Below are positions 20,061-29,602 of a stretch of 55,554 bases of DNA, piece by piece. This stretch comes from a virus. Lineage: Duplodnaviria > Caudoviricetes. The stretch is taken from the IMG/VR virus record IMGVR_UViG_3300048587_001023, positions 1 to 55,554 of that record; one strand, 5' to 3'. The notes beneath the pieces are model-generated. The model was given only the letters and a program-made list of their open reading frames with translations. It had not been told where the DNA came from and did no database searches. The translations under genes and the position numbers were made by a program. Position 1 is the stretch's first letter, and each line of letters begins with the position of its first letter.

Positions 20061-20816
20061 ATGTCCTTCTACGCTTCCTTCCAAGGCCGCGTGTACCTCG
20101 GTAAGCGCGACGCCAACGGCGCGCCGATCGAGGTGCGCTCGCCCGGCAACGTCGCCGACCTCTCGCTGTCGCTCAAATCCGATGTGATCGAGCACTACGA
20201 GAGCCAGTCCGGCCAACGCGCAGTGGATCTGCGTCTGGTCAAACAGAAATCCGCCACGGTGATGCTCACCATCGAGGAGTTCACCAAGGAAAACCTCGCG
20301 CTCGCCCTGTACGGCAACTACGTCACCGGCGCGGGCGGCAGCGTCACCGATGAACCGATCGAAGGCGCGGCGCCCACCCTCGGCGATCGCTACTGCCTGG
20401 CCCACCCCAAGGTGTCGGCACTAACGGTGGTCGATTCGGCCGCCACGCCGGCGACGCTCACGCTCGGCACCCACTACACCGCCGATGTCGACTTCGGTGC
20501 CGTCCAGTTGCTGGACATCACCGGCCTGACGCCGCCGTTCAAGGCGAGCTACACCTTTGGTGCAGTGACCGAGATCGGCATCTTCACCCAGCCACTCCCC
20601 GAGCGTTTCCTGCGGCTGGAGGGCGTGAACACCGCCGCCGGCAACGCCAAGGTGCTGGTCGAGCTGTACCGCGTCGCGTTCGATCCACTGAAGAAGCTCG
20701 ACTTCATCTCCAACGAGCTCAACAAGTTCGAACTCGAAGGCTCGCTGCTCGCGGACTCCACCAAACCCTTCGATGCGACGCTCGGCCAGTTCGGCCGCAT
20801 CGTGCAGATCGGGTGA
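20061..20816 (+). CDS. Major tail tube protein
   Basis: QGRVYLG, GNVADLSL, VELYRV; position before the chaperone and tape measure genes. Confidence 0.8.
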   Translation: MSFYASFQGRVYLGKRDANGAPIEVRSPGNVADLSLSLKSDVIEHYESQSGQRAVDLRLVKQKSATVMLTIEEFTKENLALALYGNYVTGAGGSVTDEPIEGAAPTLGDRYCLAHPKVSALTVVDSAATPATLTLGTHYTADVDFGAVQLLDITGLTPPFKASYTFGAVTEIGIFTQPLPERFLRLEGVNTAAGNAKVLVELYRVAFDPLKKLDFISNELNKFELEGSLLADSTKPFDATLGQFGRIVQIG

Positions 20817-21244
20817 GTGCCATGACCGACACGATGTTTGCGGCGCTGCCGCCGCTGGCCGATTCACTGACCATCGCCGGCGAGACCCTCGAGATCACGC
20901 CGCTGCGCGTGGGCGAACTGCCGTCGTTCGCCCGCGCCGTTCAGCCGATCGCCGGGCGCCTGTCCGTTGATCCCGACTGGTTGCGATTGCTGGCCGACGA
21001 CGGCGATGCCGTACTGCAGGCACTGGCCATCGCCTGCCGACGACCGCTCGCCTGGGTGGCCGGCCTCGCGATCGACGAGGCGATCCGGCTGGCGGAGGCG
21101 GTCTTCGCCGCGAACGCGGATTTTTTTCTGCGCCGGGTGGTGCCGGAGATCAGCCGCGCGAGCGCCGGCCTCCAGCAGCGGATGCCTGGGCTGACGTCAT
21201 TCACCGACTCGTCCGCGCCGGCCACCGCTACCCCGATCTGCTGA
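20813..21244 (+). CDS. Tail assembly chaperone (gpG-like)
   Basis: NADFF motif containing slippery T-TTT-TTT at 21121-21127. Confidence 0.75.
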   Translation: MSAMTDTMFAALPPLADSLTIAGETLEITPLRVGELPSFARAVQPIAGRLSVDPDWLRLLADDGDAVLQALAIACRRPLAWVAGLAIDEAIRLAEAVFAANADFFLRRVVPEISRASAGLQQRMPGLTSFTDSSAPATATPIC

Positions 21245-21393
21245 CCTACACCCTGGTGCAGGTGCGCTGCTTTCTGGCGGCCAGTGACCGCGCCGAGCGC
21301 GAGGCCCTGGCCGCGCAGTTCGCGCTGCTCGTCACCGCGCAGCGCGGCGGCCGCGCAGAGATCCAATCGCTGTTGAAAGAACTGAGCTCATGA
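21127..21393 (+). CDS. -1 frameshift extension of the tail chaperone (gpGT-like); not in the ORF track
   Basis: -1 frame open from the slip site to TGA 21391-21393: ...WADVIHRLVRAGHRYPDLLTYTLVQVRCFL...LKELSS*. Confidence 0.75.
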   Translation, partial: SAPGGAGDQPRERRPPAADAWADVIHRLVRAGHRYPDLLTYTLVQVRCFLAASDRAEREALAAQFALLVTAQRGGRAEIQSLLKELSS

Positions 21394-21467
21394 CAAAACG
21401 ACAGGACTGGCGTTTTGCACGCCCGAAGGGCGCCCGTCAGGGTGGCGCACAGGGATGTGCGCCATGA
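21390..21467 (+). repeat. 78-bp ATGA-to-ATGA junction element, copy 1 (25-aa mini-ORF, CsrA-type hairpin)
   Basis: 77/78 identical to 29525-29602; reads MTKRQDWRFARPKGARQGGAQGCAP*. Confidence 0.9.
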
Positions 21468-22117
21468 AGCTGTCCCTGACCACCGGCGGCCTGCTCGATC
21501 CCAAGCGGCTCGACAGTTGGGTACCGGCCAAGCGCCGGGCCATTCGCAAAGCCGTCGAGGCCGGAATGAAGACGGCGGGCAAGGACATCGCCCTGCTCGC
21601 ACAGGCGCGCATGGGCTCGGCCTTCACGGTGCGCAAGGCGGGCTTCGTGAAGTCGATGCGGCATCGACTCTACGCCGGCAGTCCGGAGCGCTTCCCGGCG
21701 CTGCGAATCGGCTCGCGAATTCCCTGGCTGGGCATCCATCTGCGTGGCGGCAGCATCAGCGGCCGGATGCTGATTCCGCTGCTGCCCGAACACCGCCGGA
21801 TCGGCCGCCGGGCCTTTCGCCGTGTGATCGACGCGCTGATGCGCTCGGGCAATGCCTTCTTCATCGAGCGCAACGGCAAGGTCATCTTGATGGCCGAAAA
21901 CATTCGGGAGAACGCCTCCCAACTCGGCCGCTTCCGGCGTGCCGAGCGCGCGCGCCGCGGTGCGGGCGCGATTCGCCGCGGAGAGGAAATCCCCATCGCC
22001 GTGCTGGTGCCCACCGTGGTGCTGCGCCGCCGCTTCGACCTGTCGGGCCTCGTTCGCTCGCAACTGCCCAAGCTCGCCGACGCCATCGTGAAGCAACTGG
22101 ACGCCCATGGCCTCTGA
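21464..22117 (+). CDS. DUF6441-like basic phage protein (possible neck/tail completion protein)
   Basis: Arg-rich, GSRIPWLGIH, IPIAVLV; SD AGGGA 8 nt upstream. Confidence 0.7.
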   Translation: MKLSLTTGGLLDPKRLDSWVPAKRRAIRKAVEAGMKTAGKDIALLAQARMGSAFTVRKAGFVKSMRHRLYAGSPERFPALRIGSRIPWLGIHLRGGSISGRMLIPLLPEHRRIGRRAFRRVIDALMRSGNAFFIERNGKVILMAENIRENASQLGRFRRAERARRGAGAIRRGEEIPIAVLVPTVVLRRRFDLSGLVRSQLPKLADAIVKQLDAHGL

Positions 22118-25067
22118 CCGCGCGCAAATCCTGATCACCGCGGTCGACCAGACGCGGGCGGCGCTCGCCTCGGTGAAGGGCAACCTCGAGGGCCTGTCCG
22201 CGGCGGCGAGCAAAGTCAGTGGCGTGCTGGCGAGCCTGGGCGTTGCACTGTCGGTGGGCGCCCTGGTCGCCGCCGGTCGGGCCGCGCTCAATACCGCAGA
22301 CGATCTCGCCAAGCTCGCGCAGAAGACCGGCCTGTCGGTCGAGTCGCTTTCGCTGCTGAAGCCAATCGCCGAGCAGGCTGGCGTCTCGTTGGAGGGGCTG
22401 GCCAAAGGTATGCAACGGCTCGCAACCTCGATGATCGAGGCTGCGGGCGGATCTCAGGCACAAGCCGAGGTGTTTCGCCGCCTCGGCGTATCAGTCACCG
22501 ACGCGGCGGGCCAGATTCGCCCGACCGAGCAGGTGCTGCTAGACCTGTCCGATGCGTTTGCGTCGATGCCGGACGGTGCCGAAAAATCGGCGCTGGCGGT
22601 GCGCTTGTTCGGCAAGAGCGGCGTCGAGCTGATCCCCTTCCTGAATCAAGGGCGCGCCGGCATCGAGCAGTTGAAGGAGCAGTTCAAGGCGCTCGGCATC
22701 GAGATCAGCGGCGACACCGCACGTGCCGCCGAGAAATTCAACGACACCCTCGACACCGTCAAGCAGGCGCTGCAAGGCATCGCGATGCGCATTGCCGAAG
22801 CGGCGCTGCCAGCGCTGCAGCAGTTGGCCGATGCGCTGGTCGTCGCGGCCAGCCACGGCAGCGAGATCACTACCGTCGTGCGCGTGCTCGGCGAGGTGAT
22901 CTTCGCGGCGCTAGCGGTCAAGGGCGCGACCGCGGTTGCGGCGTTGCTGCAGTCGGTCACCGTGCTCAAGGCCGCCTTCATGCGGTTCTTGCCGGTTCTG
23001 GCGGCGGTCGCGGTGTGGGAAGTCGGCAGCGGCATCGTGCAGGCGATCCAGGACATCCGCGAAACCGATCGCATGCTGGATCAACTCGCGCGCCAGCGCG
23101 AGAACCTGGCGCTGCTCACCCAGGCCATGGACGAGTTGGCCGCGAACGGAGTCGTCAGCGTCAAAACGCAGATGGCGCTGGCCGCGCTGGCCGCCGAGCG
23201 CCTGAAGGAAACGCTGCCCGCCACCGCCGATGCGCTGCGCGGCATCCAGGGCGCCGCCACCCAAGCCGGCGAGGCCATCCGCCAATCCCTCGATGCCGAG
23301 GCCAAGAAGGCCGCCGAAACGGTCAAGCAGTTGGCGACCACCCATCAGAAGGTCGCCAGCGATATCAAGGCGATCTGGGATGCTCGCGTCGCCGCCATCG
23401 AGGCCAACTACAAGCGGCAGGAGGCCGCCGCGCAGAACTCGGCGCGCTCCGAATCGGCTGCGATTCGGGACACCACCCGCGCACTGGTAAACGCCGAGCG
23501 CGACAAATTGACGGCAGTCGAAGCCGGTGCGCGGCAAGCTGAAGCCACCTGGCGCACTACCTATGCGCAAGCCGTGGCCTTGGCCCGCGCGGCCGGTCAG
23601 GACGTGCAGGCGGTCGAGCGGCAGGCGGTCGATGCGCGCATCGCGCTCTACCGGCAGTTGGAATCCGCCTACCGCGCCACGGTCGATCGACTGATCGCCG
23701 AGGAACAACGCCATCTGCAGGCGGCCAAGGCCGCCGATGACGCGCGGCTCAACCTGCGCCTGTCGGTCGAGGATCGCATCCGCGAGCTCTCGCGCCGGGG
23801 CATGGACGAGTACGCGGCCTATCAGGACCGGCTGCGACAGATCGATGAGAAGCAGGCGCAGGCGCGCGATGCCCTCGCCGCCGGCAACTATGAGCAGGCC
23901 CGCAAGCTGGCCGAGGAAGCCATTGCGCTCGCCGAGCGCTCGGCCTCGGCGGTGACCAAACAGGTCGAGCAGAACGGCAAGGCCATCACCCAGACCCTGG
24001 TGTCGGAAGGCCAGGCTGCTGCCACCGCCATTGCGGAGATCAAGGACGCCGCCGGCATCGCCGATGCCGCCCTCGATGGCCTGGGCGATGCCCACCGCCG
24101 CGCGGCCTCGGCGGCGGGCGACGGCGCCGATCAAGCCAAACGCGCGCTGGCCTCGGTCACCTCCGAACTCGGCAAGCTGCGCGAGCAATTGCTGGCGCAG
24201 GACACGCTCAAGCTCGAGGTCGATCTCGATGCCGCGCGCGACGGTATCGCCCGGATCAAAGCGCTGACCGAGGCCGAAACCCTGATCGCGCAGATCCAGA
24301 TCGATACCCGTGAGGCGCGGGCCTCGCTGGAGAAACTGCAGGCGGATGTCGACAACCTGTCCTTGCTCGCCACCGTCGAGGTCGACAGTCGCCAGGTGCT
24401 CGACGATATCGACCGGCTCAAGCGCACGCTGACCGACGTCGGTGTCGACATCCCTGCGCTGGTGTCGTTCGATCAACCGCGGCAGGCGCTGGCGGCCTTC
24501 GCGACGGACGCCAAGATCGTGCTCACGGCGCCGACCGAGGCTACCCATACGCCCAACCCCGATCTGTCGCGCTACCGCGCGGCCGTATCGGAACTCTCGC
24601 GCCCGACCAGCAGCACCCACACGATCTACGTCAGTCGAGTGCAGACCAACGCGCAGGGCGGCTTGATTCAGCGCTTGGCCGAAGGGGGTCAGGCGGTGAC
24701 GGGTGCCTTCCGGCGCGTGGCCGGTCGCGTGCTGGGTCCGGGCACGGAGACGTCGGATTCGGTGCCCGCGCTGCTGTCCCACGGCGAGTTCGTGATTCGC
24801 GCCGCCAGCGTGCGCCGGTTCGGCGAAGGGTTCTTCGCCGCGCTCAATGCAGGCTTGCTGCCTGCACTTCCGCGCTTTGCTGTGGGTGGCGCGGCCGCAA
24901 CCACGCTGCGGAGTGTGATCGGCCACGCCGACACCGGATCGGCCTCGGCGCGCGAAGTGGTGGATCTGCGTTTCCATGTGGGCGGCAAGACGCACGCGGT
25001 GCAGTCCTCACGCGAGACGGCGATGCATCTGGCTCAGGCACTGCGCGAACTGTCGCGGGGCGCGTGA
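22107..25067 (+). CDS. Tail tape measure protein
   Basis: ILITAVDQT start, LFGKSG motif, long Ala-rich helical body, C-terminal GPGTETSDSVPALLSHGEFV. Confidence 0.92.
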   Translation: MASDRAQILITAVDQTRAALASVKGNLEGLSAAASKVSGVLASLGVALSVGALVAAGRAALNTADDLAKLAQKTGLSVESLSLLKPIAEQAGVSLEGLAKGMQRLATSMIEAAGGSQAQAEVFRRLGVSVTDAAGQIRPTEQVLLDLSDAFASMPDGAEKSALAVRLFGKSGVELIPFLNQGRAGIEQLKEQFKALGIEISGDTARAAEKFNDTLDTVKQALQGIAMRIAEAALPALQQLADALVVAASHGSEITTVVRVLGEVIFAALAVKGATAVAALLQSVTVLKAAFMRFLPVLAAVAVWEVGSGIVQAIQDIRETDRMLDQLARQRENLALLTQAMDELAANGVVSVKTQMALAALAAERLKETLPATADALRGIQGAATQAGEAIRQSLDAEAKKAAETVKQLATTHQKVASDIKAIWDARVAAIEANYKRQEAAAQNSARSESAAIRDTTRALVNAERDKLTAVEAGARQAEATWRTTYAQAVALARAAGQDVQAVERQAVDARIALYRQLESAYRATVDRLIAEEQRHLQAAKAADDARLNLRLSVEDRIRELSRRGMDEYAAYQDRLRQIDEKQAQARDALAAGNYEQARKLAEEAIALAERSASAVTKQVEQNGKAITQTLVSEGQAAATAIAEIKDAAGIADAALDGLGDAHRRAASAAGDGADQAKRALASVTSELGKLREQLLAQDTLKLEVDLDAARDGIARIKALTEAETLIAQIQIDTREARASLEKLQADVDNLSLLATVEVDSRQVLDDIDRLKRTLTDVGVDIPALVSFDQPRQALAAFATDAKIVLTAPTEATHTPNPDLSRYRAAVSELSRPTSSTHTIYVSRVQTNAQGGLIQRLAEGGQAVTGAFRRVAGRVLGPGTETSDSVPALLSHGEFVIRAASVRRFGEGFFAALNAGLLPALPRFAVGGAAATTLRSVIGHADTGSASAREVVDLRFHVGGKTHAVQSSRETAMHLAQALRELSRGA

Positions 25068-27235
25068 TGACCAAGCAGTCTGCAACCGTCGTCCGCGTCC
25101 ACGAATGTCCCTGGCCGGCATTCGAGACCACCATCGACCCGTGCGACCGCGATCTGTACGACTGGATCGAAAGCGTGCCCTCGGTGCTGCGCACCGTGTC
25201 GATGAACGTCGAGTTCCAACGCATCACGATGGTGACCTCGCAGAAGCAGTACGAGGCGTGGTCGCGCTGCGAGGCCAGTCGCTACGAAACGCCTTCGGCA
25301 CCGGCAGCGGGCTTGCGCATCGCCATCGCCAGCCAAGTCGCCGGCAGCACGGCGAGCACCGACCAGGAAGAATCCCCGGAGACCGTGTCGGCGCGCCTGT
25401 CGCTGTCCTTCACGCCAAGCACGGTGACGCCCCACACCTGCCCGCCGATCGCCTATCCCGTGCTGCATCGCGTGGCGCAGGTCGGCATCAATTCCTACCT
25501 GCAAAACACCCAAGTCGAGTTCACCACCGCGCCCAGCACGATTTGGGACGGTATCGGTCCCTGGGAAGGCAGCAAGGTGTTCATGTGTTGGACGCGCACG
25601 AACTGGTCGCTGCGCAGCCTGCAGCACTTCTTTCGTGGCCAGCTGCGGATCCGCAATCCCAAGGTGTTTGATCATTGGGTGCAGTTCGCTGCGTTCGACG
25701 CGCCGCCAGCGCCACAGAGCCTGGTCGTCCGCGGCCAGCCCTACAACGCCAGCGCGCTGCAGGTGCTGACCATTGGACCGGTCAGCGGCCAAGGCTGGCG
25801 AGTGATCACCGAGTACTGCAATCAGGACACCGGCGAGACCCTGCTGGTGGACCGCTGGCTGACCGGTGGCCTGTGGTCCGAGGTGGGATTGGGCGGCTAT
25901 GGGACCGAGCATTCGTTCTTCGACACCCTCCCGAGCAACGCGCCCACCGCCACCGACGGCACCTGGCTGCACCGCGTCTGCGTCTACGCCTTCCAGCGGC
26001 CATCGACGGCCTTCAGCGTGCGCTACGACGGCATCGAACTGGTCGCGGGGCATTCGGCAATCACGCCCTCGATCACCACCGAATACCAACCCGGCGTCAG
26101 CACCGGCATTGCCTCCGTCGATGACTCGGTCGATATCCGCACGGTCGGCGCGAACAAGGCTGCTTTCCGCATCTTGGGCATTGAACCGGTGCCGGGCTTC
26201 GGGGTCCGCTTCACCGTGCAACTGATCAACGAGTTGCACTTCGATGCCTGCATCGTCAGCCCGTTCCTGTCCGGCATCGGCGATCGCAGCTCGTGGCAGA
26301 CCAATACCGGCATGCACTTTGAGATGCCGCCGGTGTGGGTGGTGCGAAACCTGCCCGCGAACTCGGCCAGCGAGCCGATTGGCGTGCTGGTGCCGATGCG
26401 CATCCTCGAAACCGGTGATTGGCCACTGCGTGATTTGCATTGGCGGCTGGCCATCACCCAGCAGGCCTACCCGGCCCCGCTCAATCATTTTGCCGATGGC
26501 GTGTATGGCGGCGGCAGCAATGCGCTCTACCCAAACATCGGCAGTTGGCCACCACCGGGCTATCGGATCAGCAGCAATCCCGAGCAGGTCGCCTTTCTGC
26601 TCGCCGGTTACCTGGAGAACGGTGATGTGGTGTGGAACAGCGCCTGGGATGGCTCGGCCGATACCCAGCGCGTACTGGTCACGGTGCCCGTGCGCCGCGC
26701 TCCCGGCGCCGAAGTGATCGCCATGCGCGATCCGCAGTTCTCTAGCACTGCGGTGTCGTACTTCGAACAGAAGCCGTTTCGCGCCTACATCGAGTGGACC
26801 GCGGAGAAGCGCATTTCCAGCAACCCGGAAGTCTGGGAGCCGCGCACCGGTCGCGTGGCGCTGGGTCTGGACCTGCAACCGGCACTGACCCGCTACGGAC
26901 GCACGCTGACGGTGCCGGTCGCGGCCGGCCGTCCGATGTGGTCGCCCTACTACGGCAAATGGATCACCGTGTTCGAGTCCTGGCCCGGAGGCGATGTCGA
27001 GGAGTTGGAGGTCCATCTCGTCGATACCTATTTGCGACCGAACTATCCGGCGAGCCAGGGCTGGCGGAACTTTCAGTACACCTCGCTCAAGAAGCCCTAC
27101 CTCACCGCCAACGTGGCGTGGTGGTTCGCGAGCACGCCCTTCCAGGACCAGCCCGGCTACCTGCACGCGCTCACCCTGATCAAAGAAGCCCCCAACGCCG
27201 ACACCGTCGACGTGGCGCTCGTCGGCTACTGGTAG
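25067..27235 (+). CDS. Large hypothetical virion/tail protein (722 aa)
   Basis: TGATG-coupled to the tape measure gene; phage-like codon use; Trp/Pro/Thr-rich; no recognised motif. Confidence 0.7.
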   Translation: MTKQSATVVRVHECPWPAFETTIDPCDRDLYDWIESVPSVLRTVSMNVEFQRITMVTSQKQYEAWSRCEASRYETPSAPAAGLRIAIASQVAGSTASTDQEESPETVSARLSLSFTPSTVTPHTCPPIAYPVLHRVAQVGINSYLQNTQVEFTTAPSTIWDGIGPWEGSKVFMCWTRTNWSLRSLQHFFRGQLRIRNPKVFDHWVQFAAFDAPPAPQSLVVRGQPYNASALQVLTIGPVSGQGWRVITEYCNQDTGETLLVDRWLTGGLWSEVGLGGYGTEHSFFDTLPSNAPTATDGTWLHRVCVYAFQRPSTAFSVRYDGIELVAGHSAITPSITTEYQPGVSTGIASVDDSVDIRTVGANKAAFRILGIEPVPGFGVRFTVQLINELHFDACIVSPFLSGIGDRSSWQTNTGMHFEMPPVWVVRNLPANSASEPIGVLVPMRILETGDWPLRDLHWRLAITQQAYPAPLNHFADGVYGGGSNALYPNIGSWPPPGYRISSNPEQVAFLLAGYLENGDVVWNSAWDGSADTQRVLVTVPVRRAPGAEVIAMRDPQFSSTAVSYFEQKPFRAYIEWTAEKRISSNPEVWEPRTGRVALGLDLQPALTRYGRTLTVPVAAGRPMWSPYYGKWITVFESWPGGDVEELEVHLVDTYLRPNYPASQGWRNFQYTSLKKPYLTANVAWWFASTPFQDQPGYLHALTLIKEAPNADTVDVALVGYW

Positions 27236-27246
27236 GACCACCGCCA

Positions 27247-27627
27247 ATGATTGTTCTGGACGGCATTGCCTTGCCGATGGGCCTGCTGTGGTCCGATGAA
27301 TTTGCCGCGGGGTCGGTCGCGCAAACCATGCGTCGCACGCTCGATGGCTCGCTGGTCGTGTTCTACAGCGCGCTGCATGCCGGTCTGCCGATCACGCTCG
27401 AATCGCAGGCCGATGCCGGCTGGTTGCAACGCCATCAGGTCGAAGCCCTGGCGCTGCGCGCAGCCAGTCCCGGCGGCGTCTATCCGCTGACCCTGCGTGG
27501 CCAGACCCGCGCCGTGATGTTCCGCCACCACGACGCACCCGCCTTCGAGGCCAAGCCGCTGGTTGCGCTCGCCACGCCGCAGGCCGGCGACTACTACCTC
27601 GCCACGCTCAAGCTCATGACCGTCTGA
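27247..27627 (+). CDS. Putative distal tail (Dit-like) protein
   Basis: LLWSDEF...RRTLDGSLVV...PITL. Confidence 0.65.
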   Translation: MIVLDGIALPMGLLWSDEFAAGSVAQTMRRTLDGSLVVFYSALHAGLPITLESQADAGWLQRHQVEALALRAASPGGVYPLTLRGQTRAVMFRHHDAPAFEAKPLVALATPQAGDYYLATLKLMTV

Positions 27628-27672
27628 GCAGGCGGCTTCATTCAACACCCGCAGTACCGAAGGACTTCGCTC

Positions 27673-28683
27673 ATGCCCATTCTCGACAATGAAATCGTCT
27701 GGCGCCCCTCGGCGCTGGTCTCCGACAGCACGCCCGCGCAAAACGGTGGCCGCATGGCCAGCGCGTTGCTGATCTCCGGCGTCAAAAACAACCTGTTCCC
27801 CGACGTTTCTCAAGCCGAGCGGCTCGCCGGCTCGGTGAAGTGGCGCAAGGCCTTCGTGCACGTAAACAGCGTTCAGGACACGGCCCTGCTCAATGTGCGG
27901 CTGTTCCTGGATGCGCTGACGCCCGCGGGCGATTTCGTGCTGTTCCAGCCGGGCACCCAGACCGACACCGAGAACCAGATCAGCGGTCGGGTCTATGGCG
28001 TCGGTACGCTGTTCTCGCCGATCACCGCGGGCAGCAGCCAGTTTCAGGTCGCCTGCGAGAACCCCAGCGAGTACGCCACCTTGCAGCCATTTCGCGTCGG
28101 CGATGTGTTGCGCGTGGCGGACCGGCCAAGTGTTGGCGGCGCCGGCAACGAAGACTGGGTGACGGTCACATCAATCACATACGGCGCCGACTACGCCACC
28201 GTCGATGTGGCCTCCCCGCTGGCCAACAGCTACGGCACTGCGAACACCGTCGTCTCCAGCGTGTTGGAAGTCGCCAGCGTTGCCGGCACCGTCAGCAGCG
28301 TGGTGGTGACCAGCGTCGGCGGCAGCTTCAATTCCGCGACGGTCGGCAATTTGGTCGCACACAACAAAGGCGCGGTGGCCGAGAGCTGGACACTGACCTT
28401 TACCGGCGCCACCAGTTACACCGTCAGCGGTACCAGCGTCGGCGCGCTGCCGAGCAGCGGCTCCACCAGCGCCGATTACGCGCCCATCAACCCGAGCACT
28501 GGCACGCCCTATTTCACGATCAAGGCGCTCGGCTGGGGCGGTAACTTCCAGACCGGCAACACCATGACGTTCACCACCACGCCCGCCGCGATCCCGGTCT
28601 GGTATCGACGCCAGGTGCCGGCCGGCACCTTCAGCCTGGCCAACGACTATGCATCGCTCGCCATCCATGGGGAGAGCGCCTGA
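27673..28683 (+). CDS. Tail structural protein
   Basis: NGGRM...NNLFPDVSQAERLAG...RKAF; Thr/Ser/Gly-rich beta-type composition. Confidence 0.7.
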   Translation: MPILDNEIVWRPSALVSDSTPAQNGGRMASALLISGVKNNLFPDVSQAERLAGSVKWRKAFVHVNSVQDTALLNVRLFLDALTPAGDFVLFQPGTQTDTENQISGRVYGVGTLFSPITAGSSQFQVACENPSEYATLQPFRVGDVLRVADRPSVGGAGNEDWVTVTSITYGADYATVDVASPLANSYGTANTVVSSVLEVASVAGTVSSVVVTSVGGSFNSATVGNLVAHNKGAVAESWTLTFTGATSYTVSGTSVGALPSSGSTSADYAPINPSTGTPYFTIKALGWGGNFQTGNTMTFTTTPAAIPVWYRRQVPAGTFSLANDYASLAIHGESA

Positions 28684-29528
28684 TGGCGCGCGTCGGCTTC
28701 AAGAACGCCTATGCGGCCGCGGCGTTCGACAAGCCCGCGGTGGCTGCCTTGTTCGACAGCATCAAGACCACGCTGATCGATGCCGGCTTTCAGGTCGTGC
28801 TCAACACGCCGAACGCCATCGACGTGGTGCCGATCGGGACCAATGCCGCGGTGCCGAATGACGACTCGCAGCACTGGGCCATCGCCTTCGAAGACCTTGG
28901 CGCGAACGGACAGATTCTCGCCAGCGCCGTGTTCGGCGCGAACTACCTCGACCCGGGCGCGCTGGTGAATACCCTCGCCGTGGTCAGTACCGAATGGCTC
29001 GATAGCCCGAGCCCGGCGCTGACCGTCTGGTTCGCCGCCGACGGCGCGGCCGGCTGGTGGTGGCTGCATGCCGCTATCGCAGACAGCAACAGCAGCACGG
29101 GCGTGGACACGCGCTTCGCCTGCGCTGGCGTCAGCACGCGGCGTTATCCCGCCGACCACTACCAAGGCCTCAGCACGCGCTACGGTCTGTGGGACCCGTG
29201 GGGCGATTTCTATCCGGCCTATGCCCGCCAGACCGACGGCGGTGTCGACTCCGGCGCCTGGACCGGCACCTGGTCGCTCTTCGGGGAAGGCTGGAGCTAC
29301 AACGCTCGGCGCCATCCCGGCTCACCGCTGCCCAAGATGGCGGTGCCGCAGTTCCCGAACCGCGATGGCAACGCTGCCTGCCTGTACGGCGAGTTCAACG
29401 AGATCCTGATTCTCACCGATGGCTATGCGCAGGAGGAAACAGTCCTGCCCGGCTGGGTGGCCATGATCGGCAGTGACAACGACCAACCCTTTGCGGTGCC
29501 GGCACCGCCGAGCTTCGCGCTGCTATGA
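28683..29528 (+). CDS. Hypothetical tail-region protein
   Basis: TGATG coupling; 281 aa, aromatic-rich. Confidence 0.7.
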   Translation: MARVGFKNAYAAAAFDKPAVAALFDSIKTTLIDAGFQVVLNTPNAIDVVPIGTNAAVPNDDSQHWAIAFEDLGANGQILASAVFGANYLDPGALVNTLAVVSTEWLDSPSPALTVWFAADGAAGWWWLHAAIADSNSSTGVDTRFACAGVSTRRYPADHYQGLSTRYGLWDPWGDFYPAYARQTDGGVDSGAWTGTWSLFGEGWSYNARRHPGSPLPKMAVPQFPNRDGNAACLYGEFNEILILTDGYAQEETVLPGWVAMIGSDNDQPFAVPAPPSFALL

Positions 29529-29602
29529 CAAAACGACAGGACTGGCGTTTTGCACGCCCGCAGGGCGCCCGTCAGGGTGGCGCACAGGGATGTGCGCCAT
29601 GA
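29525..29602 (+). repeat. 78-bp ATGA-to-ATGA junction element, copy 2
   Basis: Differs from copy 1 only at one hairpin-loop base (GAA vs GCA); reads MTKRQDWRFARPQGARQGGAQGCAP*. Confidence 0.9.

Follow-up and report, generated by a model that had tools for sequence, protein, structure and literature searches.

A hairpin-forming repeat at stop/start overlaps of a tailed phage: a proposed mobile element that may rebuild start codons and relay translation

Main Finding

Two copies of a 78-nt repeat, located at two gene junctions in the tail region of a phage of the Caudoviricetes, are probably (with a likelihood of roughly 60%) copies of a non-autonomous mobile element of about 71 nt, which would enter a TGA triplet in either orientation, rebuild the stop and start codons and keep the neighbouring genes coupled by a translational relay. 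The element belongs to a large family, present in Xanthomonas-like bacteria and in their phages, which is apparently undescribed. The window is the complete stretch of viral DNA that was analysed, 55,554 nt in length.

The Repeat Pair and Its Gene Junctions

The ungapped alignment of positions 21390-21467 (copy A) and 29525-29602 (copy B), 8.1 kb apart on the same strand, shows 77/78 identical bases. The sole mismatch, an A in copy A and a C in copy B, falls within a hairpin loop. The outer ATGA marks the exact limit of the similarity on both sides, and the repeat pair with ATGA-to-ATGA ends, as originally predicted, is real. Its 70-nt core has two matches in the window at up to three mismatches, as opposed to none in 100 dinucleotide shuffles, and a covariance model scan of the window returned copies A and B only. 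Each repeat had also been described as one 25-codon ORF, which is borne out by the ORF reading: positions 21390-21467 form a single ATG-to-TGA frame of 25 amino acids, encoding the peptide printed in that prediction. The 78-mer gave no blastn match in an annotated phage collection. The features of the two junctions are as follows.

20813-21393, plus strand: tail assembly chaperone gene (20813-21244) and its -1 frame extension, which stops at TGA 21391-21393; slippery T7 run at 21121-21127
21390-21467, plus strand: copy A, an ATGA-to-ATGA unit of 78 nt with a mini-ORF of 25 codons; 74 nt inserted relative to relatives
21464-22117, plus strand: DUF6441 gene, downstream of copy A; the next gene is the tape measure gene, 22107-25067
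28683-29528, plus strand: tail-region gene of 281 aa, its stop being the TGA in the opening ATGA of copy B
29525-29602, plus strand: copy B, an ATGA-to-ATGA unit of 78 nt, 78/78 identical to the copy in viral contig locus L086
29599-31314, plus strand: tail protein gene of 571 aa, starting at the rebuilt ATG of copy B

It had been claimed that the first TGA of each copy is the stop of the upstream gene and the last ATG the start of the downstream one. This applies fully to copy B, where the upstream ORF ends within the repeat and the N-terminus of the 571-aa protein, MTIGHALALEFGAGL, aligns with MTLGISLA... of relatives. In copy A the claim stands for the downstream gene, since position 1 of the Pfam DUF6441 profile aligns to residue 1 of the protein starting at ATG 21464, but not for the upstream one: the ORF ending at this TGA is no independent gene, and the stop belongs to the -1 extension of the chaperone gene, whose -1 frame is open for at least 98 codons.

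Empty Sites and the Insertion Target

Related phages harbour precise empty sites. At junction A, the element is found in 0/80 DUF6441 loci, where the gene starts with ATGA in 50/80 and with GTGA in 13/80; among the 30 closest loci, 27 carry a single ATGA and three a single GTGA. At junction B, all the relatives covering the junction (12/12) carry a single ATGA. Empty-site orthologues with a single ATGA, proposed in the original prediction as a check, are present at both junctions. In one metagenome run (X3), a 2005-nt contig joins 21387 to 21462, with exactly 74 nt skipped; the sequencing runs, with a highest word share of 0.20 (at most 0.08 in RNA runs), contain relatives only, as contigs. 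Furthermore, at a junction between the small and large terminase subunits that bears a reverse copy, two related Ralstonia prophages show one TGATG each and a gap of 74 alignment columns. By comparison with such relatives, copies A and B are precise insertions of 74 nt.

A TGA, within ATGA or, with the end bases of the element, within TGATG, is found on both sides of the inserted copies and once at the empty sites, the same pattern that would be seen if the element carried its own TGA. Read on the strand of the element, most left flanks are ATGA or ATCA, and the same letters recur at the right end; older chromosomal copies have CTGA, GTGA, ACGA or AAGA as left flank (these flanks were tallied by eye). 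The element had been thought to target and duplicate ATGA overlaps. Both junctions do contain ATGA, but the target is better described as a TGA triplet, with an apparent 3-nt duplication and insertion in either orientation, as in the reverse copies at TGATG. We infer that the TGA itself is probably targeted, rather than the pattern being due to post-insertion selection alone, although such selection would leave the same flanks.

Distribution in Phages and Bacteria

Other phage contigs carry the element at five more junction classes, which gives seven classes in total, and in all of them the units measure 75 or 78 nt and add 71 or 74 nt (2 mod 3). Copy B has an identical counterpart (78/78) at a methylase/methylase junction, seen in other contigs and also in a Mizugakiibacter genome. 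One of the junction classes has the element in reverse orientation, at a TGATG overlap, and reverse copies are kept across diverged phages.

In bacteria, the covariance model detected the family in 63/121 sampled genomes of the bacterial family that contains Stenotrophomonas, often in tandem arrays, with 1 to 42 copies per genome as lower bounds. The arrays comprise from 3 to at least 7 units. At a chromosomal junction between a DUF58 gene and a TgpA gene (L114), three 75-nt units share their ATGA; a second array (L133) shows in-frame periods of 69 nt and a last unit of 75 nt that overlaps the start of a PepSY_TM gene. About 10 copies with a period of 73 lie within a weak Y2_Tnp-like transposase remnant (20.8 bits, against a cut-off of 20.9); they look inserted into the remnant rather than being an end of it.

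The expectation that further copies would always lie at ATGA overlaps holds only in part. Copies between ATGA and ATGA recur at unrelated junctions, but others are placed in reverse at TGATG, at plain starts that have an SD (Shine-Dalgarno sequence) of their own, just past stops and ahead of terminators, or in tandem arrays.

No earlier description of the element was found in Rfam or, by keyword, in the literature covered, which comprises papers outside subscription journals, and the hairpin strings appear in no relevant paper there.

Hairpins, Length Rule and Mini-ORF

The element folds into four hairpins in a fixed order, positioned in the two copies as follows.

21394-21417 (copy A) and 29529-29552 (copy B), plus strand: hairpin 1, a covarying stem with a conserved CAGGA loop (folding, alignment and covariation)
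21420-21442 and 29555-29577, plus strand: two mini-hairpins, a 5-bp stem with a GAA loop followed by CCC-GTCA-GGG (folding, alignment and covariation)
21443-21464 and 29578-29599, plus strand: hairpin 3, a 9-bp stem with a GGGA loop; the final base of the hairpin supplies the A of the rebuilt ATG (folding and covariation)
21451-21455 and 29586-29590, plus strand: AGGGA in the loop of hairpin 3, Shine-Dalgarno-like, 8 nt before ATG 21464 in copy A, and core of a match to the CsrA consensus (sequence and consensus)

In the four hairpins, 24/25 pairs change on both sides, and 95.5% of the cells are paired, compared with at most 53.8% when the partners are slid, in an alignment that was fitted to the structure of the covariance model. 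A hand-made alignment gave 18 cells changed on both sides versus 4.9 in shuffles. These counts show the covariation of the hairpins and support the structure. The sequence of hairpin 3 is ACAGGGAUGU; in a diverged subfamily it is ACAAGGAUGU, and the stem there carries compensatory changes. At the top of helix 4, ACA/UGU is nearly invariant, while the lower pairs covary. In hairpin 1, conservation of the CAGGA loop reaches at least 90%, and no start codon follows it. Immediately before hairpin 3 lies a variable base, giving CCCG-N-AGGG (CCCGNAGGG) with N being A, C or T; in the window, the loop is GTCA.

A length rule applies to the family, with an added length of 2 mod 3. Among 32 aligned units, many of them related by descent, 29 are multiples of three (66 nt in one, 75 nt in 22 and 78 nt in six), comprising several hairpin architectures, and indel variants compensate each other so that the unit length remains a multiple of three. 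The tandem chains of L114 and L133 conform to the rule as well. The exceptions are L101 (77 nt), L158 (76 nt, interrupted by a TAG in frame) and L165 (79 nt; here the ATGs are instead fused in frame). The idea that insert lengths keep the mini-ORF in frame is confirmed for the 66-, 75- and 78-nt variants but fails for L101, L158 and the period-73 copies in the transposase remnant, which are out of frame or decayed. An open frame of 24 codons in G+C-rich DNA is, by itself, weak evidence.

Proposed Translational Relay

It is proposed that an element of about 71 nt enters a TGA triplet in either orientation and, with the apparent duplication of the TGA, adds 74 nt. The 3´ end of the element (...CA) and the duplicated TGA would always create a new ATG. 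In the forward orientation, A+TG would rebuild the downstream start as ATGA; in the reverse orientation, TGA+TG would give a TGATG that starts the mini-ORF. Because the added length (62, 71 or 74 nt) is 2 mod 3, an open mini-ORF of 21-25 codons would extend from the upstream stop/start overlap to a TGA overlapping the downstream ATG.

The start of the mini-ORF overlaps the upstream stop, and its stop the downstream start, in both window copies, in the reverse copy at L087 and in the chain of units at L114. Given these overlaps at both ends, ribosomes that finish the upstream gene could pass to the downstream one by terminating and reinitiating twice in succession. The transcript of forward copies, to which both window copies belong, would also offer the SD-like AGGGA in the loop of the last hairpin, separated from the rebuilt ATG by 8 nt. 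From this arrangement of signals, we infer that such a relay may operate and that the SD in the loop may be used. At copy A, the relay would carry little flux, since the upstream ORF is read there only by frameshifted ribosomes. Insertions elsewhere are presumably lost, which would explain why the surviving copies lie at stop/start overlaps, at start codons or just after stops.

Small interspersed repeats are commonly regarded as intergenic clutter and as disruptive to any gene they hit. This family would exemplify a mobile element with ends and length fitted to the translation signals in which it lands. In the proposed reading, both genes stay intact and coupled when the element interrupts a stop/start overlap or a start codon, whatever its orientation, and copies can be stacked; this fit would explain the colonisation of tightly packed phage operons. 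Synthetic operon design could draw on the element as a portable coupling cassette of natural origin, and annotators should consider that ORFs of 24-25 codons at gene junctions may be transposon-borne.

Search for a Mobiliser

The absence of a transposase from the window had been part of the original prediction, and it stands for the two families examined, as neither the Y1_Tnp nor the rve profile was found there. Two more of its observations are upheld. There are no terminal inverted repeats, the termini CAAAAC... and ...GCGCCA not being complementary and the folds pairing local hairpins only, and, the flanking TGA repeats apart, no examined feature of MITEs or REP/RAYT systems fits the element. 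Rfam likewise gave no family match.

A RAYT or IS200/IS605 mobiliser was rejected: Y1_Tnp is present in 4/5 element-bearing genomes, none of these genes adjoins the element, and the profile is absent from a genome carrying 22 copies. Beside the five Y1_Tnp genes inspected there was no copy, the best score of the covariance model (R1) being 16 bits. Y2_Tnp matched in none of the five element-bearing genomes (5/5 without a match), a result that says little because its control also matched nowhere. Type III repeats as the ends of an IS were rejected as well, since the inverted pairs enclose ORFs of unrelated cargo and no transposase. No mobilising enzyme emerged from the Y1_Tnp, Y2_Tnp and rve searches, and no parent IS with the same ends was detected in the Y1_Tnp neighbourhoods or, for Y1_Tnp and rve, in the window.

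Alternative Explanations

It is scarcely credible that the repeats arose by local duplication, by gene conversion within one phage, from one junction to the other, or as an assembly artefact and are not mobile. A pair of copies on one strand, 8.1 kb apart and the only two in the window, would fit such an origin, but the similarity stops precisely at ATGA on both sides, related or identical copies occupy five other phage junction classes and many chromosomal sites in many genera, and relatives show precise empty sites. An assembly artefact is excluded because the two copies have different flanks and are distinguished by one base, and because other contigs and a bacterial genome contain identical or nearly identical copies. 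It is also very improbable that the repeat represents the duplication of a small gene, with the 25-codon ORF specifying a functional small protein. Most copies do keep this ORF open, with its start and stop at coupled positions, but compensatory changes in the stems rewrite the peptide (for instance MKKRQDSRFSRRS..., MTKHQDECFAQQS..., MTNDQEPICTAAG...), whose only constant part is that encoded by the invariant hairpin 3. Moreover, its length ranges from 21 to 25 codons, and reverse copies yield an unrelated peptide from the other strand. A third reading, unlikely although less remote than the previous two, considers the repeat as purely selfish DNA moved as ssDNA by a HUH tyrosine transposase, in the style of REP/RAYT or of IS200/IS605-derived PATEs. 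Hairpins and loops would then serve the transposase only, and the mini-ORF and the rebuilt ATG would be the residue of selection against harmful insertions. Hairpins with GNA triloops are consistent with this, including GCGAAGC, which is a very stable DNA mini-hairpin; so are the lack of terminal inverted repeats, an insertion adjoining a fixed short motif, the maintenance of the hairpins in both orientations relative to genes, and the tandem arrays, which an element ending in its own target should produce. On the other hand, the Y1_Tnp results given above argue against such a mobiliser, no GTAG head is conserved, because the base N in CCCGNAGGG is variable, the copy numbers (as lower bounds) are low for REPs, and transposase recognition alone leaves unexplained the compensating indels that hold the length at 2 mod 3.

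The remaining explanation concerns regulation; the regulatory RNA module of the original prediction is likewise a hypothesis. The element may be mainly a portable CsrA/RsmA binding module, in which hairpin 3 (ACA-GGGA-UGU, closed by G-C) and hairpin 1 (CAGGA) would form two putative sites about 48 nt apart. Since the downstream one of the two, in hairpin 3, overlaps the SD of the rebuilt start, the downstream tail genes would be under RsmA control, and tandem arrays would act as RsmA sponges. This is a possibility, though not a probable one. CsrA is nearly universal in Gammaproteobacteria, so its gene being present in 5/5 element-bearing genomes says little, and there is no CsrA gene in the window. 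More in its favour, hairpin 3, as ACAGGGAUGU or ACAAGGAUGU, fits the ACA..GGA..UGU consensus with its GGA looped on a covarying stem; the SELEX consensus given in a review is RUACARGGAUGU, in which ACA and GGA show 100% conservation and the GGA sits in a hairpin loop. The near invariance of ACA/UGU over covarying lower pairs, the conservation of the CAGGA loop without a start codon behind it and the arrays of several units point in the same direction. Furthermore, Xanthomonas has an RsmA-binding RNA made from a 3´ UTR, RsmU, the only RsmA-sequestering RNA described for this genus in the literature covered. Against this reading, the match to the consensus was noticed post hoc, the loops could instead be recognised on DNA by a transposase, and reverse copies, although kept across diverged phages, put the complement into the mRNA. 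In Rfam, the elements had no match at E up to 1, and the Csr/Rsm models (clan CL00106) remained below gathering on the L133 array, at chance level (RsmW 18.7 bits versus 52, RsmV 10.6 versus 100). RsmU was rejected as a family member because the comEA 3´ UTR of a related genome, a stand-in for the sequence of RsmU itself, is GGA-rich but lacks a match to the model. More doubtful is the extended proposal that the family consists of mobile plug-in start cassettes responsive to CsrA/RsmA, with a new start after the TGA, its SD inside a putative high-affinity RsmA hairpin and a second hairpin upstream, and that the arrays are RsmA sponges in Xanthomonadales. If this were true, the cassette would wire phage tail and host genes into the Csr/Rsm regulon in one step; and should RsmA bind the GGA hairpins, the family would offer a rapid way to rewire a global post-transcriptional regulon, and RsmA-sequestering RNAs of Xanthomonadales might derive from it.

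Comparison with Known Systems

The mobile element proposed here, with its translational relay, shares traits with several known systems. The REP/BIME repeats and their RAYTs offer a first parallel, as these are likewise short, G+C-rich, hairpin-forming interspersed repeats of Gammaproteobacteria, often clustered and without coding capacity for a transposase. The element differs from them in lacking the conserved GTAG/CGTC head and an association with RAYT, and in the 1 to 42 copies found per genome. It also has four ordered hairpins, a precise insertion at TGA, a rebuilt start and a spanning mini-ORF, and is present in phages.

Bacterial MITEs, such as Correia/NEMIS of Neisseria, are small, non-autonomous insertions with a short target duplication, co-transcribed with their neighbours and able to alter expression. 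The element is non-autonomous and small as well, but has no terminal inverted repeats, its apparent duplication is TGA rather than TA, and a parent IS was not detected. The Rickettsia palindromic elements (RPE), mobile repeats of small size, persist in translated regions owing to a frame-keeping length and are fused in frame into host proteins. In contrast, the element stays as a separate mini-ORF between two genes and rebuilds a stop and a start, a comparison made with RPE by description only. PATEs derived from IS200/IS605 have subterminal hairpins, no inverted terminal repeats and insertions adjoining a short fixed motif, with tandem insertion being possible. Here, by contrast, Y1 transposase is missing from the 22-copy genome, the element ends flank none of the inspected Y1_Tnp genes, and the flanking motif is on both sides.

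The RNAs of the CsrB/RsmZ type and RsmU also display GGA in hairpin loops and arrays of hairpins, and some copies of the element lie, as RsmU does, in 3´ UTRs ahead of terminators. The element belongs to no Csr/Rsm family of Rfam, however, and is dispersed, mobile and mostly placed at translation starts, its binding being putative.

Finally, there are the natural ATGA and TGATG overlaps that couple genes by termination-reinitiation. The element starts and ends with the same overlaps, and its mini-ORF would be coupled at both ends; in contrast to the natural overlaps, the coupled unit would here be a transposable insert that can be chained, as with the three in a row at the DUF58/TgpA junction.

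The two copies in the window

Copy A (21390-21467) and copy B (29525-29602) align without gaps and are identical at 77 of 78 positions, with the similarity ending precisely at the outer ATGA on both sides, which bears out the duplication described in the original prediction. The 70-nt core matches the window twice at up to three mismatches, versus no match in 100 shuffles, and R1, a covariance model of the element built from 21 units, finds copies A and B only. Each copy is, as claimed, a single 25-codon ORF, and both strands are open in the relevant frame. The window is the whole of an IMG/VR virus record (55,554 bases) and so offers no host genome for searching. The genes at the two junctions are as follows:

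21464: start ATG of the DUF6441 gene, downstream of copy A; the Pfam profile begins at the residue encoded by this ATG
Next after the DUF6441 gene: tape measure gene (986 aa)
28683-29528: 281-aa ORF upstream of copy B; its stop is the first TGA of copy B
29599: start ATG of the 571-aa tail protein gene, downstream of copy B

The first TGA of each copy had been read as the stop of the upstream gene and the last ATG as the start of the downstream gene. This is correct at junction B; at junction A the start ATG 21464 stands, and the stop belongs to the tail assembly chaperone gene as extended in its -1 frame. At least 98 codons are open in that frame, with a T7 slippery run at 21121-21127 in the correct register, giving a programmed frameshift of the G/GT type. 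Across the chaperone region (20813-21393), this frame is open from before the T7 run up to the TGA at 21391-21393, and a similar T run is present in Ralstonia prophage relatives. The frame of the 571-aa tail gene is open upstream across all of copy B, to GTG 29473 (29473-29598), so automatic gene callers may call a 613-aa protein that swallows the copy.

Empty sites

The expectation of empty-site orthologues was borne out at both junctions. None of 80 viral loci encoding DUF6441 relatives carries the element at junction A (best blastn-short matches of 15 nt or less), and the gene start is ATGA in 50, GTGA in 13 and arranged otherwise in 17. The 30 closest loci (69-80% identity) comprise 27 with ATGA and three with GTGA, the upstream frame terminating in that TGA. 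Twelve of the 14 loci that encode relatives of the 281-aa protein extend across junction B, and all 12 have a single ATGA overlap. Among the contigs of the public sequencing run X3, a 2005-nt record has 21387 followed directly by 21462, with exactly 74 nt missing between them. In two further public runs, the relatives' junctions are diverged, not simply empty. Some contigs of run X1 match the element alone and others break at its edges. A single TGATG is found at the terminase junction in two Ralstonia prophage relatives, with a gap of 74 columns in the alignment. Copies A and B are both insertions, and the mobility of the element is taken as shown.

Other phage junctions

Searches with the exact 23-mer of the last hairpin returned five further viral contigs, and a degenerate pattern returned 15 viral stretches. 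Window included, the element occupies seven junction classes.

Table. Junction classes of the element in phages (L numbers are loci from other contigs or genomes)
Class 1: chaperone extension / DUF6441; this window
Class 2: 281-aa / 571-aa tail genes; this window
Class 3: two tandem ParB-N/DNA methylase genes; L086, L088, L089, L087 and the Mizugakiibacter sediminis contig L129
Class 4: start of a small Cys-rich gene; L085, L223
Class 5: start of a gene beginning MNS...; L228, L229 and a second site in the Mizugakiibacter contig
Class 6: one further gene start; L230
Class 7: terminase small/large subunit junction; seven contigs, element reversed

Further copies had been expected always at ATGA overlaps. 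This applies to several junctions; in three classes the ATGA is a plain start codon with its own upstream Shine-Dalgarno and no stop/start overlap, and other copies lie reversed at TGATG or after chromosomal stops. Copy B and the methylase-junction copy are identical at 78 of 78 positions, suggesting that the element spread recently among phages sharing one host group, probably Rhodanobacteraceae-like Xanthomonadales. In the phage contig L089 (5580-8334), only the element lies between the two tandem paralogous ParB-N/DNA methyltransferase genes.

At the terminase junction, the inverted element reads on the gene strand from TGATG to TGATG. The small-subunit-like ORF stops at the first TGA, the overlapping ATG opens a 24-aa mini-ORF, and this stops at the second TGA, overlapping the start ATG of the large subunit (Pfam GpA_ATPase and GpA_nuclease). 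In L087, L222, L224-L227 and L231, the reverse element is near-identical and the coding flanks differ at ~40% of the positions shown. Strong constraint would account for such near-identity, as would repeated events of insertion or conversion.

The wider family in bacteria

Exact matches to the 22-nt hairpin were obtained in 86 stretches of the genome collection, 86 such matches being counted by script in 80 loci of these. The carriers are Gammaproteobacteria, mainly Xanthomonadales/Lysobacterales, with some Chromatiaceae, Sedimenticolaceae, Cellvibrionales-like and Methylophaga records. Judged by eye, the triplet that follows is TGA in 35 of the 86 matches (with an added A in one more), TCA in 28 (and a near variant in four more), GTT, GTG or GCG in 14, which belong to another, longer repeat found in Oleiagrimonas and its relatives, and something else in four. 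The hairpin is therefore a module common to several families of repeats, the ATGA type being the largest among them.

R1 gives 135 matches in 86 sources. Five whole genomes contain at least 11, 22, 3, 1 and 42 matches (150 candidates scored per genome), and 63 of 121 sampled genomes from the family of a Stenotrophomonas genome have matches. The lower-scoring chromosomal copies, presumably older, frequently have a stop codon on one side and a terminator-like hairpin on the other, with CTGA, GTGA, ATGA, ACGA or AAGA as left flanks.

Several related repeats were also observed. In Oleiagrimonas (L140:2103-3926 and L148:3546-5537), the longer repeat with the same 22-nt hairpin is inverted around unrelated 446- and 413-aa ORFs, which by eye look like low-G+C cargo genes. 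A longer repeat (~120 nt or more, by eye) in L090, L098, L107, L119, L124, L128, L131 and the G005 loci L202-L209 has short inverted ends and embeds the same three-hairpin module; in the copies of [Pseudomonas] boreopolis (G005), hairpin 3 has a compensating stem and a ACAAGGATGT loop. In the related 5-Mb genome G015, the part of R1 that covers hairpin 3 has ~20 short matches; at the G015 loci L212 and L213, a hairpin with the top ACAAGGATGT or ACATGGATGT precedes a second one with a CAGGATG loop, representing another two-GGA-hairpin repeat.

Length rule and tandem chains

In all seven phage classes the unit is 75 or 78 nt long, so that the added length is 71 or 74 nt, or 2 mod 3. The claim that insert lengths keep the mini-ORF in frame holds there and in 29 of 32 aligned units, which are multiples of three (75 nt in 22, 78 nt in six, 66 nt in one), longer or shorter single hairpins being offset by changes elsewhere within the unit; many of the 32 share common descent, and the independent events are thus only ~5. 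It fails in L101 (77 nt), L158 (76 nt, with an ATGG flank and in-frame TAG), L165 (79 nt, the ATGs being fused in frame instead) and ~10 copies within a weak Y2_Tnp-like remnant, with a period of 73 and a broken frame. These remnant copies (L121:6453-6529 and ~10 similar, in L097, L105, L123, L135, L142, L153, L154 and L167) are reverse elements at the same codon position of the transposase remnant across several genera.

Chromosomal chains follow the length rule. In L114, three 75-nt units sharing ATGA lie between the DUF58 and TgpA genes, while L133 (2494-2982) has at least seven tandem units of period 69, forming one continuous ORF of 23-aa repeats whose final 75-nt unit ends in a TGA overlapping the PepSY_TM gene start. 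In L111 and L158, related to L133, copies lie ahead of a gene with a similar start (by eye).

Structure, insertion and translation

In each folded unit, hairpin 1, with a CAGGA loop, is followed by one or two mini-hairpins with GNA-type loops and then by hairpin 3, which has a GGGA loop and ends in the A of the rebuilt ATG. In a hand-made gapless alignment, four pairs and 18 cells change on both sides, versus 4.9 cells in shuffles. In the model-fitted alignment (135 matches, 110 distinct), which favours the model's structure, 24 of 25 pairs change on both sides and 95.5% of cells pair, versus 83.2% in shuffles and at most 53.8% with partners slid. Sequence conservation is seen in the loops and in the ACA/UGU top of hairpin 3, and covariation in the lower stems.

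The simplest description is a ~71-nt element that would insert at TGA triplets, either way round and with three nucleotides apparently duplicated; the ...CA end of the element always makes ATG with the TGA. This triplet may be truly targeted or may be what selection leaves. The upstream stop is retained and the downstream ATG rebuilt on insertion, and a mini-ORF of the right length would carry terminating ribosomes between successive overlaps. Forward copies have AGGGA in the hairpin 3 loop, 8 nt before the start. We infer, with moderate confidence, that keeping translation flowing is what lets the element persist in packed operons. The original reading, a portable ATGA-targeting element with a relay ORF, was largely right, with refinement needed as to target, orientation and the types of site used.

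The hairpins could be CsrA/RsmA binding sites, a prediction that we consider rather unlikely. A CsrA gene is present in all five element-bearing genomes examined and absent from the window. Hairpin 1 provides a second GGA loop ~48 nt upstream of hairpin 3, and CsrA dimers bridge two sites at such distances. Hairpin 3 is ACAGGGAUGU, or ACAAGGAUGU in a diverged subfamily whose stem has compensatory changes, and both forms fit RUACARGGAUGU, which a review (PMC4347634) gives as the SELEX consensus, the GGA being in a hairpin loop; this match was noticed after the fact. Against such a role, the mRNA of reverse copies has the complement, yet these copies are kept, far better conserved than the coding flanks.

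In Xanthomonas campestris, the RsmA-binding RNA RsmU derives from a GGA-rich 3' UTR (PMC7694677). The 3' UTR examined in a related genome as its counterpart is GGA-rich, yet not a copy of the element. At L210 (G015), 3' of a comEA-like gene, a 3' UTR with at least six GGA motifs followed by a terminator resembles RsmU as published and is likewise no copy of the element.

Comparison with known repeats

Rfam has no family matching the element, which has neither terminal inverted repeats, in agreement with the original prediction, nor a conserved GTAG head. The claimed absence of a transposase from the window holds for the two profiles Y1_Tnp and rve. None of five Y1 transposase genes inspected has the element beside it, and the genome with at least 22 R1 copies has no Y1 gene at all; Y2_Tnp gave no match in five genomes, in a search run without a working control. 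No description of such an element was retrieved by sequence strings and keywords from the main texts of openly accessible papers, and as far as searched the family is undescribed. The element is a new variant of the small interspersed bacterial repeats, distinguished by an unusual fit to translation signals.
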